From: Eledone cirrhosa
Lineage: Eukaryota
Direction: 5' to 3'
Length of the DNA: 64,000 bases
NCBI GenBank assembly: GCA_964016885.1
Contig: OZ024745.1
Location: 124,496,001 to 124,560,000, forward strand
Of this stretch, positions 821 to 61,880 are shown one piece after another. A model generated the notes under the pieces. It saw only the letters and a list, made by a program, of their open reading frames with translations, was not told the origin of the DNA and did no database searches. How positions within the stretch are numbered: position 1 is the stretch's first letter; each line of letters starts with the position of its first letter. A program made the translations under genes and the position numbers.

Positions 821-1059
821 TAACGAAGGAATTGTGGAAGGAACCAGATGGACCATAACGCACCAGAGTACTCAATACTTAGGGTAGTAGAGTGGGTAAT
901 GGGAAAAAGTATGACCCCGATGGCAGAGCTCAAGCCGTTTCGACGGCTATTTCTGGACTAAATTAGAATTATTTCACCAGGCGAAAAATTCTAATTTAGT
1001 CCAGAAATAGCCGTCGAAACGGCTTGAGCTCTGCCGTCGGGGTCATACTTTTTCCTATA
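821..1059 (-). mobile_element. Fold-back insertion, family A (PLE pLTR-like), in (TA)n
   Basis: Inverted arms 902-970/987-1055 and an ~80 nt tail at 821-901; contains GAAACGGC..GCCGTC (HHR 3' half); family recurs at 27821, 33821, 53942. Confidence 0.8.
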
Positions 1060-1536
1060 AATATATATATATTTAAAAAGACCGAAAAGAATGACTTCAC
1101 TTGTAGTTCTAAAAAAATTAATTAAATTATAATATTATGATTTGGTAGATCAAGTAAGTTCTTTGTTACTTTCGGTGGGAAGATTTTTAAAGAATCCTGG
1201 TTAAGTTTCCTGGAGAAAGGTTATTTATTGAAATAGAACCAGCAGGAGGGCACTTTTACAACGCCTTTCTAAAATAGTCCTTCACCACTGCTAATCAATT
1301 ATCTTTCAGTATTATTAAGTTACCATTCATTATTTTCTGTATACATACTGTATATATGCTTTAATTTCTTTAAATCTTCATCAGCACTCCTTCACTCCCA
1401 CACTCATTAACCCCCTCCCCTCTTGCCCCAGACACACGCAGATCTCTCTTATATATAGAGTCACACATCACAACACAACCTAATCTCAGTTTGACAATCA
1501 CCACCGACGAATGCGAGAAAATTCTCCAGGAAAGTT

Positions 1537-2215
1537 GCATGGGTTAGACAGGTTGTCCTATTGTGGGCAGTGTCCAGTCGGTTGACCTTGTCTTGCTCAT
1601 ACAGGAACTGAGTCTGGCTTGATTTCTACAGCTGGATGCCTTTCCTAACACAAACCTCATTTACAGTGAGTACTGGGTGCTTTTTTTCCGTGACGCCTAC
1701 ACGTCCACTATACAGTGTGGGCTGGGTGTTTTGCCGTGGCACCTCCACGACCACTTTTCATTGAGAGTGGGGGGGGGGGGGGGATATTGTATATATGCTT
1801 CAGCTTTGGCTTGATCCCGTGGGAAGTCGGGTCTTCTGAATTACTGCGTGACGCCAGAGGTAACGGTCGTGTGTCATCACTCTTGTGAGGTGTATTCAGG
1901 TAAAGTCCGCTTTTATCACCTCATCCCAGGTCTTCTTGGATCTCCCCACTCCACGGCTTCCATCGACTTCTAGTGCTCTGCACCTTTTTATGCAGCTGAC
2001 ATCCTTCATACGCATCACATGTCCATACCAACGTAACCTCCTCTCCTGCGCACAGCATTTGATTCCGCTTATGCTCAGTCTCTCTCTCAGTTCGTTTATG
2101 CTTTGCCGTTCGCGTATATTATTACTATTACACATCCATCGGAGCATGCAAGCTTCGTTTCTTTCTAATCTGCGCAAGTCTTCTACAGACAACGCCCAGG
2201 TCTCACTACCATGCA
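1537..2215 (-). mobile_element. RTE-clade LINE 3' fragment (ORF C-terminus and 3' UTR)
   Basis: LHGSETW..DLRRLERNEACMLRWMC..ERRLRWYGHVMRM..GRSKKTWDEVIKAD motifs in ORF 1896..2255. Confidence 0.9.
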
Positions 2216-5200
2216 ACACACACACACACACACACACACACACACACACACACACACATATATATATATATATATATATATATATATATATATGTATTTC
2301 TTGGTTTGTCCAGTTATTAATGCTGATTTTACGTTTTTATATGTTCTAAACAACCTTAAGATTAAAACCTTAAGCAGGGTGTGTGAAATTATATATAATT
2401 CTTTCGCATATGTTATGTTCGTTTTATATAATGCATTCTGATTATAAATTACATTTTCATCATTGTACTGATCTTTGATGTTAAGATGTGAAAACAGGAT
2501 TTTTCTTAAAATTCTATGAGTTTAAATTCAGCTGTAGTGCAGCACTCATAGTTAGAAACATCAATGGGAGTTTTGGGCCAACAAATTGTTAATGAATGCA
2601 CACTACAACCTTGTTCCAAATATTTCCTTGATGTGATTTCAGTCTTGAAGATGAGAAAAGTTGCGGTCGTTTTTTGTACCTTTAACGACAGTGAATTAAA
2701 GAAGTTGGTGAAGGAAAAATACTCGTGCAACTATTCGAAAGTTTCCATGAGAACTAGATGTAAACACTGGAACAATTTATAAACATTTGAACCGACTTGG
2801 AACATTAGAGAATCATGAAAAATGGGTGCCACATGAATTCAACGAAAACCAGAAAAATCGTCATTATAAAATCTGCGTTTCGTTTCATTTGTGCAGACAA
2901 ACTATAAGTCATTTTCGCTCTTATAATGGAATTAAGAAACAATATTAATTATCTCATTTAATTATCTCAATATTAATTATCTCAATAAATTAAGACAACC
3001 AATATTGGAAGAAATATTTTGGAAGAAGAAACATACTCAATAGAGACCATAAGATTTGACTTCTGCTAAATATGTTTAAATGCTTCTCTGGTTTAATGTT
3101 TATCTTTTCATTGAGATGTTTACAAATAATTTTCTTCTGTTTGATGTATGTATATATATATATACAATTTATCGTCATCACGTTTGCTCAAATGCAACAC
3201 GATAAATCTGAAATGGAGCGATCAACATTCATTGTCACGTGGAAAGAATTCGGTGTCTCAGAGTGGCAAATATTCGATTTCTAAAAGGTTTTGTATAGCT
3301 TAGACGTTTAGATATCTAACAGAGAATATCAACCACAAATACCCATGTAAATTTCATTTATTTGGACCCTCGACGATTTTTGCCATATATGTAACTGAAT
3401 GCATAAAGCATATTTACAATAATTTCATGGGGTCCATAAGCAGATATCATCCTTTTGGAGTTGTGTTTTTTTGTGGAACCTATGGGAGGGACTGCTACTG
3501 CTACAGAAGTTTAGCAGCGACTGCCATTACGTGATTCCTTTCTAGTAATTCTACAAATGAATTCTTTACAGAATTCCGTGGCTTAGAAAATCTAAAAATA
3601 TCTTCGAACATCGGCAAGACTAACGCAGAGGAATGAAAAGATTAGAATGCTTCAGCAGGCTTTGTGCAAATATGGAATTTTGAGAACTCCATATTTCGTA
3701 ATGCTTAAGAAGTATCACTGCTAATATTAACATTTGATGAAATCTATAAAGTGAGGTAACATGATAACGAAAATAAGTAACAGCCATAACAAATTTCACA
3801 TTAAGTTTTACAGCTACACGACCGATATTAGAGGATTGGACGTAAAGGCATATGGCTTACCATGATAAATTCTATGTGTTACATCGTATCACCCAGGTCG
3901 GATCTAATGTGGATAAGGGGATATATATACTGAAAATAGAAAATAACAGTAAACAAAAAAACAACAACCCCGATAAGGAAACCGGAGGATAAATAAACTG
4001 GTGTACTACAACAGAAACATCTACAGAATACTGCCAATTAATTATAACCAACCAAGTTCACATTATGTACAAATGAGCAATAACAGCCGATGTTTTCTAT
4101 TTGCTATATGCAAATGAGAATACCCAGAACATTTTCATCACGCAAATTTCCATATAAACACTTGTCTATTTCAAAGTCAGTATCTGTTGATTGTGTATCA
4201 CTGATGAAAAATTAAAAAAATCTTGAAATAGTGCTATCTGGTATTCTATACCGTGCTGACAACTCTGTAACATGTTTACGGAGAAAAATAGAGAATAATA
4301 TTTGTGTTACAAAAATATTTGTCCTTGATAGCGAGGCTACCCATATGTTTAATATATATAAACATAGAGTGTATTTTTACATATAAAACCTATAAATGAT
4401 TGTTTGAAATAGCCTTATCATTACATGCTAAGATAGTTGGGCTTCGACAAGTAACACCAAATCCCACGAAAACAGCTAATATAGGTGATTCTATTGCTAA
4501 GGATGATCAAAATATTCCCTGCCATGAGGAAAGACATCATTCTATTCATCTTAATTGTCAAAGGTCAGCGACCACTGGTTCACTGCATTCTTCTATTTAA
4601 GTTGAAGTTGCATCATTACCACTGTTTCCTCCACGTGTGAGATCTCGAAATGGAATAGTATAGATTAGTACTTGACAGTGTCACATGTACGCCGTCACAT
4701 CTTAATAAATGCTGCAATAAATTCCCTGTAGAGCCTGTGGCGAATAATAGCGAGCACGGTAAAATAGTTTGAGGGCAATGTTGAGAATGTAGTCATGAGT
4801 AGTTGTGTTGTGTGGCTGGATTGTCCGGAAATATTTTTGTACTCTGCTACTGAAATTAATGTTGATAAAGCAAATAGGGCCTACGAGCGTTATTGTTGTT
4901 TTGTCGTATGAGATTGAAGAGGAAATGTATAGAAAGGCATCATTTTACCAATGGAAATACCCTTGAAAAAACTACCTTGCTCGAGGAGTGACAGGTAGAG
5001 TGATGATAGAAACTTAAGGAATATACTTGACACACACATAAGTAGACAGACAAACACACTCACACACACACACACATACACATACACATAAATAAATAGA
5101 TAAATGAATAAATATATATATATATATATGTAATCTGAGTTTTTCGAATATTAATAATAACATTCGATTCGTTTGCAATTATACAAACAAGCCTTATATA

Positions 5201-5265
5201 TATATATATTTTGGCAAAACTGGAATTAAACCATTTGCACAGTTGAGGTATGTCAGACATCAATT

Positions 5266-5331
5266 TATTTTATCTGATGAGGACGTACTGATGAAACAGC
5301 TCAGTACCTCTGAAATATATATAATAAAATA
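5266..5331 (+). ncRNA. Type I minimal hammerhead ribozyme motif
   Basis: Stem I TATTTTAT/ATAAAATA, core CTGATGA at 5274, stem II GTACTGA/TCAGTAC, GAAA at 5312, palindromic TA stem III. Confidence 0.75.
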
Positions 5332-5437
5332 TATTTGATCTCATGAATGTCTATATTTATTAATATTTTGAAGTAATATATATATATATATATATATATA
5401 TATATATATATATATATATATATATATATATATATAT

Positions 5438-60780: not shown

Positions 60781-60936
60781 TATATGTATATATATATATA
60801 TATATTGCAAGAGAAGTCAACATGAATGGACCTGTTATTTTTATCTAAAGACATTTTTTCCAATTCCATCTCTGTGTTTATAGTTTGATACCATCAACAC
60901 TATAAACACAGAGCTGGCATATTTAAGAACTGACTA

Positions 60937-60992
60937 ACTGCCTGATGAGGTCATAGCCATTCAATGGCTATCATCGAAATATATATAGCAGT
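60937..60992 (+). ncRNA. Type I hammerhead ribozyme motif, preceded by a hairpin at 60869-60913
   Basis: ACTGC-CTGATGA-GGTCATAGCCAT(TCA)ATGGCTATCATC-GAAA-TATATATA-GCAGT. Confidence 0.85.
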
Positions 60993-61077
60993 AAATAAAG
61001 GGTTATGAATTCATGCAATTGACTTATGTTTCGTCACTATATATATATATATATATATATATATATATATATATATA

Positions 61078-61618
61078 TAGTTATAGGAATAACCAAAGAG
61101 TGCTTAGAAATACATTGTTTTATTAGCTAACAGTGTTTCATCCATACACCATGGCAGGAATCATCAGACCCTATAAACATGAGTGTATCAGTAGTTGCAT
61201 GCTCGCTGCGTCACCAGAACAAGGTTAAAGGACCAGCAGGGGGGTCCCGAGGTCAGTGCTATATGGAAAAAGACAGAATACATGATGCACATAATGTCAT
61301 AAAATGTCTTAAAAATTTAAAATTTACACCAAAAATTTATCACATGAATGGTGCAATAGAGGATAAAGAGGTTGGGGGAGGGTAGCAAGGGATGAGTGAT
61401 ATACTCATGTTTATAGGGTCTGATGATTCCTGCCATGGTGTATGGATGAAACACTGTTAGCTAATAAAACAATGTATTTCTAAGCACTCTTTGGTTATTC
61501 CTATAACTATAACGGCTCTGTAGTATACTAGTTATTCTACATTGAGCTAAAACCACACAGTCATACCAAGGGCAATATATCTGCATGTCTGGGCATATTG
61601 ATATATTTGTCAACGAAA
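61078..61618 (+). mobile_element. Fold-back insertion with HHR-like motifs (61410-61467 +, 61120-61178 -)
   Basis: Arms 61078-61190/61397-61510, ~205-bp spacer, ~108 nt tail; CTGATGA..GAAAC present but stem I weak. Confidence 0.8.
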
Positions 61619-61680
61619 TATATATATATATATATATATATATATATATATATATATATATATATATATATATATATATT

Positions 61681-61880
61681 ATAAAGGAAACGAAAAATCA
61701 GTGATGCATCTGGACTTAGTTTATTTCATGTTACAAATGTTTCGCCGGCATGTAGCTCGAGTCATAGTCCTTGTTTGGATCTGGATGATTCTACTTCTGC
61801 GGGTTCTTTCAGACACGGGTGTTACGTCCGGAGCAAATTTTATCACTAGCAGTGATAAAATTTGCTCCGGACGTAACTTT
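61681..61880 (-). mobile_element. Family C-like fragment plus perfect hairpin (61820-61877)
   Basis: AAAATCAGTGATGCA..GTTTCGCCGGC matches 6190-6246; GTTACGTCCGGAGCAAATTTTATCACT / AGTGATAAAATTTGCTCCGGACGTAAC. Confidence 0.65.

Follow-up and report, generated by a model that had tools for sequence, protein, structure and literature searches.

Our results indicate that the short hairpins scattered through a 64-kb stretch of the Eledone cirrhosa genome (GCA_964016885.1, contig OZ024745.1, positions 124,496,001 to 124,560,000; these 64,000 nucleotides are hereafter called the window) are probably 5′-truncated, head-to-head insertions of Penelope-like elements (PLEs), mostly of the Hydra clade, and of retrozyme-like elements in (TA)n tracts, and that each likely arose from one RNA primed twice, by both nicked target strands and at two fixed sites. 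The insertions fall into definable families, and the mapped families have two fixed 3′ ends each. Paired arms follow a one-tail rule, lie against (TA)n, share sequence variants, and are unequal in length in both directions.

Two fixed 3′ ends and one tail per insertion

In nine mapped families, the 3′ ends of copies formed two sharp classes, one at the end of a tail and the other at an upstream site (counts for mapped families use fetched DNA, that is, 464 kb of unselected tiles and loci fetched by search). The spacing from tail end to upstream site was 77 nt in family A, 87 in B, 74 in C, 64 in K, 81 in L, 59 in N, 58 in F, and 60 in H, with 29–34 nt separating the two ends in family E; among 210 family A 3′ ends, 86 lay at position 0 and 79 at position 77. 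Family D also had two 3′-end classes, separated by ~58 nt, and a head-to-head arrangement was seen in 18 of 44 family D clusters. A tailed arm was combined with a tail-less one in 143 of 150 head-to-head insertions, 21 of these 143 pairs coming from the unselected tiles and the remainder from search-fetched loci; such pair counts are lower bounds, as anchored pairing misses some (e.g., the family A copy at 53942; tile list). Tail-less ends also occurred singly, in 16 of the 40 solo copies in the 464 kb.

The (TA)n enrichment anticipated by an earlier reading of the window's letters (the original prediction) was pronounced: (TA)n of at least 6 nt flanked one or both ends of 126/143 pairs, the background being 5.7% of random positions. 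No target-site duplication was readable inside the (TA)n. The tail-less end itself closed in an alternating T/A run of 2–8 nt in all 10 families scored, and in a run of at least 3 nt in seven of them (background 17% and 6%).

The arms overlapped in 126 pairs, ending within 25 nt of each other in 79, with the tail-less arm longer in 23 and the tailed arm longer in 24; in the 17 further pairs only the tail was inverted, and the difference in arm length reached 2 kb (locus L269). The original prediction of a long tailed arm with a shorter inverted one does not hold generally, the tail-less arm extending deeper into the element at 6098, 30253, 53184, and 61078 in the window, and the related idea that folding back of the tailed arm produced the inverted one is not supported, given how often the tail-less arm is the longer. 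An excess of longer tail-less arms among unselected pairs (18 versus 5) was set aside as detection bias, symmetrical detection giving 6 versus 5.

Truncation points in the two arms were coupled more tightly than hot spots account for, with 81/143 close pairs versus 57 in permutations and, for long arms, 8 of 26 pairs within 25 nt versus 2.0. Non-majority variants were common to both arms of an insertion 4–8 times more often than they were between insertions, in all three classes (114 scorable pairs). Divergence between arms averaged 3–6%, and unequal arms made up 16 of 34 pairs at ≤2% divergence and 7 of 36 at >6%. Extra bases were present at 43% of junctions.

Families and their coding relatives

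Sites were grouped into families A–N by self-comparison, the genome was searched with families A, B, C, D, E, F, G, K, L, M, and N, and the longest copies were traced 5′. Matching DNA queries gave 195–3035 genome candidates each at first look, and a 33-mer of family A had 1192 exact genome matches; the longer family A arm, used as a DNA query, returned no matches, its words being too common. Longer copies of A, B, E, K, L, and N, several independent ones in each family, run into open reading frames (ORFs) for a reverse transcriptase (RT) and a GIY-YIG endonuclease (EN), which bears out the proposal that the hairpins are 5′-truncated PLE products. Specifically, family A reaches RT/EN in loci L263, L266, and L269, family N in L273, L274, and L277, and family B in L132–L134, while family L has a near-intact, 821-codon open frame behind its pseudo-long terminal repeat (pLTR) in L140; the pLTR precedes the ORF in both L140 and L013.

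Family E copies carry a long ORF with Pfam matches to RVT_1 and GIY-YIG and belong to the Penelope/Poseidon type. By their protein motifs, families A, B, K, L, and N fit the Hydra clade: they have a CxCX5C linker, no CCHH, and CxxC plus CxH around the EN E/N (one K copy lacks the last linker Cys, and one N copy stops before CxxC); SDKT (DKG to DKT) is present in B, L, and N, the A and K fragments not spanning that site; and an RWK-like motif reads RLRWT in L and RLRWR in B. A first assignment of these ORFs to Neptune was dropped, the motifs fitting Hydra instead. The original prediction took the families to be unrelated, which is true of their 3′ DNA ends, where no similarity was detectable, but not of their proteins, five of which fall in one clade at 37–54% identity in overlaps.

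The Hydra-type ORFs had no Pfam match and were not recognized in a PDB sequence search, and GIY-YIG matched weakly in 3 of 26 aligned relatives. The structure predicted for the family L protein (pLDDT, a confidence score, 82.9) had telomerase RTs as its three best Foldseek matches, and the only named relative of this protein is from Argonauta. A Hydra-type EN fragment lies upstream in one locus each of families C (L184) and M, that of L184 not being shown collinear in a second family C copy; no ORF link was found for families F (15 loci) and H.

Two side observations concern these loci. In L283–L297, family M is present mostly as solo copies of 175 nt with a fixed start directly after a TA run and without an inverted arm; three copies reach further 5′. 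Other PLE ORFs, one a 1240-codon open frame, are nested among Hydra-type insertions at L137:2086-5805 and L134:4765-5511, with CX2-5CxxC linkers that make them Neptune-like by that motif.

Hammerheads and retrozyme-like monomers

Type I hammerhead motifs, a trait of the pLTR in EN-bearing PLEs, were sought with a pattern of relaxed helix II, a stricter version of which misses K and B; ten shuffled windows gave 0 hits. A canonical core occurs in the majority 3′ ends of K, L, N, D, M, and H, and of B if CAGAAGA is allowed (7/12), and families F and G have a hammerhead by targeted pattern. Family A has a U3-A8 core, a covariation reported in PMC4209133, and additional departures from the canonical core are present in B, C, and E, with C and E the more divergent. 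The term "ribozyme-bearing" therefore suits the families, at the level of the motif, and not every copy, a complete motif passing the pattern inside the window only in copies of B, K, L, and M. Most short family A copies end inside helix II, without half the core, and the copy at 821..1060 breaks off there. Predicted cleavage sites lie 20–54 nt inside the tail-less end, so neither fixed 3′ end appears to be a cleavage site. The hammerheads are identified here as sequence motifs; monomer folds were weak (z −2.3 to +0.7), and no hammerhead family was present among the 150 of 183 Rfam matches listed, where the only hairpin hits were sub-threshold and mostly to microRNA (miRNA) families.

Families D and G appear to be retrozyme-like, non-autonomous elements, in agreement with the suggestion that some hairpins are non-autonomous products. 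Both are ORF-less monomers with a type I hammerhead (423 nt in D, with 2.7 tandem units in locus L191; ~420 nt in G), and in the ~20 loci examined for each, the sequence 5′ of a monomer was only a further copy of the same monomer. Separately, L239:4970-7164 holds a head-to-tail array of a 310-nt monomer, folded head-to-head within (TA)n, with arms up to 100% identical and a flagged hammerhead-like motif; it may represent a third retrozyme-like family of very recent age, or else an assembly problem.

Hairpins of the window

The window is 35% GC and rich in microsatellites, and its abundant short interspersed elements (SINEs) apparently resemble those of octopuses. All 18 inverted repeats of the original prediction were recovered (Table 1). 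In a self-BLAST census with simple repeats masked and SINE–SINE pairs excluded, the window had 20 inverted repeats and three shuffles had 0, 0, and 0; the neighboring 100-kb flanks had 24 (five rows being one array) and 18, and 20 evenly spaced 10-kb tiles of the genome had 26. The density is thus 31 per 100 kb in the window versus 13 in the random tiles (~2.4-fold), and the expectation of a hairpin every few kilobases genome-wide is not supported. The tail plus tail-less layout was seen in 11 of the 26 tile repeats, six of the 11 being from families outside our reference set.

This layout was present at 14 of the 18 sites, twelve of which could be mapped on family references (821, 5438, 6098, 15558, 18180, 27005, 30253, 33821, 53184, 53942, 57603, and 61078) and two further ones being 28153 and 42096; it was absent at 7641, 36612, 60869, and 61681. 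Tails exist as described but measure 35–91 nt, not 40–110. The placement of sites between (TA)n tracts is likewise partly right: 17/18 touch (TA)n of at least 6 nt, at both ends in 9 and at one end in 8, with neither end flanked in 1. To call the hairpins perfect was an overstatement, the best arm alignments being 72–100% identical with a longest perfect stem of 12–130 bp, and stems of at least 40 bp occurring at only 10 of 18 sites. The 2.1-kb coding PLE does have the expected layout, and its 5′-truncated RT-GIY-YIG ORF occupies 16473-17483 and continues downstream.

Table 1. Inverted repeats and related insertions in the window, with clade names as suggested by motif fit
Positions	Strand	Feature	Details
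821..1060	-	Family A, Hydra-clade PLE 3′ end	77-nt tail and arm, head-to-head with tail-less arm
5438..5681	-	Family B, Hydra-clade PLE hairpin	87-nt tail; hammerhead-like motif, CAGAAGA core variant
6095..6366	-	Family C hairpin	tail-less arm 32 nt further 5′; 74-nt tail; longer copies carry divergent hammerhead-like motif
7641..8115	none	D-related family palindrome	SINE 7682-7867 splits left arm; tail not seen
15558..17664	-	Family E, Penelope/Poseidon-type PLE	2.1 kb; 205-bp tail-less inverted arm; tail ~35-42 nt
18180..18803	-	Family B hairpin	arms 259 bp, 98% complementary
27000..27191	-	Family F hairpin, older	tail ~58-66 nt; longer copies carry hammerhead
28153..28385	-	Family G, retrozyme-like monomer	head-to-head; 49-nt tail
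30253..30357	-	Family H short hairpin	60-nt tail; longer copies carry hammerhead
33821..34020	-	Family A hairpin, older	mapped on family reference
36612..36650	none	Unassigned 37-bp hairpin adjoining (TA)n	no homologue among fetched loci
42096..43020	-	Family D, retrozyme-like	423-nt monomer, tandem plus inverted arm; tail ~58-73 nt
53177..53920	+	Family L, Hydra-clade PLE hairpin	81-nt tail; canonical hammerhead in each arm (53282 -, 53734 +)
53942..54137	+	Family A hairpin	mapped on family reference
57603..57846	+	Family K, Hydra-clade PLE hairpin	64-nt tail; hammerhead motif in each arm
60863..61035	+	Family M solo copy	canonical hammerhead 60942; 58-nt local hairpin at 5′ end
61076..61570	+	Family N, Hydra-clade PLE	tail-less inverted arm 214 nt further 5′ than tailed arm
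61680..61880	-	C-subfamily tail-less arm	ends in 57-bp hairpin; without tailed partner

Beyond these sites, a further family (58733-58906 and 60806-60870, with a hammerhead at 58799 on the minus strand) has its inverted arms parted by a Tx1/L1-type fragment (59514-60488) and recurs at 27368-27527 and in 29 fetched loci. Solo ends with a hammerhead resembling the family L motif occur at 5210-5370, 26247, and 37131 in the window and at L280:2750-3900, where four such copies are interleaved with (TA)n tracts. Extra inverted repeats lie at 34060-34162, which resembles a repeat end common in many loci, at 41379-41700, and at 58074-58203, which surrounds a (TA)n tract. A long trinucleotide-rich tandem repeat of CAC/CAA type (38964-40443) produces spurious Pro/Thr/His-rich frames.

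Mechanism of insertion

We favor twin priming because the arm and end counts join with an in vitro result reported for a Poseidon PLE, in which both strands are cut and extended and two RNA start sites bound the tail (PMC11167929). In such a scheme, the GIY-YIG domain would nick both (TA)n strands; one 3′-OH would prime at the tail end of the RNA and the other at the internal site 58–87 nt upstream, which ends in the 2- to 8-nt TA-like run; and the two antisense complementary DNAs (cDNAs) would terminate prematurely, in many cases within the hammerhead or immediately 5′ of it. Direct joining of the two cDNAs would then yield arms of unequal length, or else a tail that is inverted without any duplication, and snapping back of one cDNA at a short palindrome, followed by annealing to the other, would yield equal arms. 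In this scheme, the hairpins are integration by-products and not a selected device.

Several points weigh against this model. Deletion at the palindrome center at a later time would also yield arms unequal in both directions, and twin priming cannot be told from such trimming by a split as even as 23:24. The age trend of unequal arms is confounded by family, the searches that supplied most pairs favor long arms, and arm-to-arm gene conversion could also give shared variants. Junction microhomology gave a weak signal, an overlap of at least 3 nt being found at 33% of 150 junctions versus 24% of 372 synthetic controls. PMC11167929 reports priming without target homology, unlike the TA-like runs seen here. 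The links of families C, F, H, and M to an ORF are not firm, and for every family reported here the mechanism is deduced from sequence comparison.

The strongest competitor, a real possibility but one that we consider distinctly less probable, is that the same elements insert via fold-back, whereby a cDNA self-primes at a palindrome (or an antisense RNA does so, as proposed by Arkhipova et al. 2013), the endonuclease cuts the resulting hairpin at a fixed site and leaves the tail, and later deletions at the center make the arms unequal. The 79/126 overlapping pairs whose arms end within 25 nt, the coupled truncation points, the variants common to both arms, the junction hot spots at short palindromes, and the extra bases at many junctions are all in line with this process; moreover, PMC3846280 argues for self-priming from palindromic junctions, and PMC8557442 attributes the tail to resolution by EN. 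However, fold-back requires a second event for the 23 longer tail-less arms (up to 2 kb) and for 15 pairs in which only the tail is inverted, unequal pairs are frequent among the youngest insertions, and the solo tail-less copies, together with the in vitro start sites, indicate that the internal site itself primes. In short, fold-back of one cDNA fails to give the observed tally unless palindromes are trimmed later, and two-strand priming does give it.

It is very unlikely that selection maintains the hairpins for a role as cruciform or double-stranded RNA elements, and the TA-targeted system seeding such structures that the original prediction envisaged is hypothetical. The density is high (20 in 64 kb), and 10/18 sites have perfect stems of at least 40 bp; nevertheless, arms decay with age, junction positions vary from copy to copy, the density differs 2.4-fold between the window and random tiles, and the window yielded no identified host gene. 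A by-product of integration is the more likely explanation than a functional system.

Two further readings are more improbable still. Inverted ends in a TA context could suggest miniature inverted-repeat transposable elements (MITEs), that is, DNA transposons with terminal inverted repeats (TIRs) and TA target duplications, and the window does contain one genuine TIR element outside the predicted sites; the PLE hairpins have arms of variable length with a one-sided tail that continue into RT ORFs, and for families A, B, E, K, L, and N the MITE reading is refuted. That TIR element (6418-7227) adjoins (TA)n, has TIRs of 77 bp that are 91% alike and are matched in 11 fetched loci, and is MITE-like, unlike the PLE hairpins. 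As for assembly or long-read fold-back artifacts, assembly is difficult where a palindrome adjoins long (TA)n, and the window's own junctions are not among the short-read contig pieces listed; yet the arms differ (by 3–6% on average and sometimes by kilobases in length), they end at family-fixed positions across many loci, and short-read contigs show arm-to-arm joints of families L and A at other positions and tail-less ends running into TA. These joints are from the 15 listed of 234, with 54136-54200 lacking read cover, and the four short-read runs represent at most two samples from one study and may share the assembly's source.

Relation to known elements and implications

The architecture is mostly known, and what is new is its members, abundant ones in a little-studied clade, together with the tally of their arms and ends. 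An inverted 5′-truncated copy, a one-sided tail of 30–40 bp, and (TA)n targeting are already described in PMC8557442, palindromic head-to-head junctions with a self-priming model in PMC3846280, and opposite-strand hammerhead pairs 100–700 bp apart in PMC4209133. Canonical PLE insertions (PMC3846280, PMC8557442) thus share with ours the 5′-truncated copy with adjacent inverted copy, the palindromic head-to-head junction, and the tail at a single end; the present set adds 150 counted insertions, most only 100–400 bp, a strict one-tail rule, a fixed internal end, and either arm as the longer. We found no paper in the open literature with PLE arm-length counts or a twin-priming model; the supplements of PMC8557442 may list these families. 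An Octopus vulgaris annotation reports 31 recently active PLE families, and the portion of it available to us does not discuss this structure (PMC13282606).

Published Hydra-clade PLEs (Craig et al. 2021, PMC8557442) resemble those reported here in having an RT with a C-terminal GIY-YIG, DKT, an RWK-like motif, the CxCX5C linker, CxxC plus CxH in EN, hammerheads, and (TA)n insertion. As described there, they comprise a few dozen mostly cnidarian families, shorter than 3 kb and with tails of 30–40, whereas we find at least five families, elements of up to ~4.7 kb, tails of 59–87 nt, and variant hammerhead cores. The Poseidon element PAc studied in vitro (PMC11167929) has two RT start sites that bound the tail, cutting and extension of both strands, and an AT-rich target in common with our families; it belongs to a different clade, the inverted product was not reconstituted in the work as far as it was accessible, and our tail-less ends close in a TA-like run matching the target.

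The proposed process resembles one in L1 elements. In L1 twin priming, two target 3′ ends prime one RNA and a 5′ inversion results. There the position of the second site varies and no sequence is duplicated, whereas here the site is fixed and duplication of the shared stretch is usual.

Retrozymes have been considered probable PLE passengers (PMC7229834; bioRxiv 10.64898/2026.07.22.740005). As in the non-LTR (long terminal repeat) retrozymes of these two sources, families D and G consist of ORF-less, head-to-tail monomers of ~420 nt, slightly above the 170–400 nt range of PMC7229834, with a type I hammerhead and co-existing PLEs; unlike published retrozymes, they bear the marks of PLE integration, namely a pair of fixed 3′ ends, the tail, the inverted arm, and (TA)n, and a word search of bioRxiv 10.64898/2026.07.22.740005 found no argument from such marks. 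We therefore put forward, more tentatively than twin priming in these insertions, the broader idea that PLE inverted repeats and tails may in general reflect fixed-site twin priming of one RNA at (TA)n and that D and G, in carrying exactly this scar, may provide direct genomic evidence for mobilization in trans by Hydra-clade proteins.

Both PMC8557442 and PMC3846280 treat the origin of the tandem and inverted ends of PLEs, and of their tail, as an unsolved question. The arm and end tally makes this mechanism testable: young insertions number in the thousands in the E. cirrhosa genome and come from parallel families with two sharp RNA sites each, and one ORF is near-intact, so that twin priming and fold-back can be tested directly against each other. 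The short hairpins are likely to be mislabeled as MITEs or miRNA precursors, given the many sub-threshold Rfam miRNA hits. The PLE scar on retrozyme-like monomers also matters for the question of which enzyme mobilizes animal retrozymes. If the broader idea put forward above is correct, short palindromes in this 3-Gb genome would have a major and under-annotated source in the Hydra clade, their number being on the order of 100,000 (extrapolated from 11 per 200 kb).

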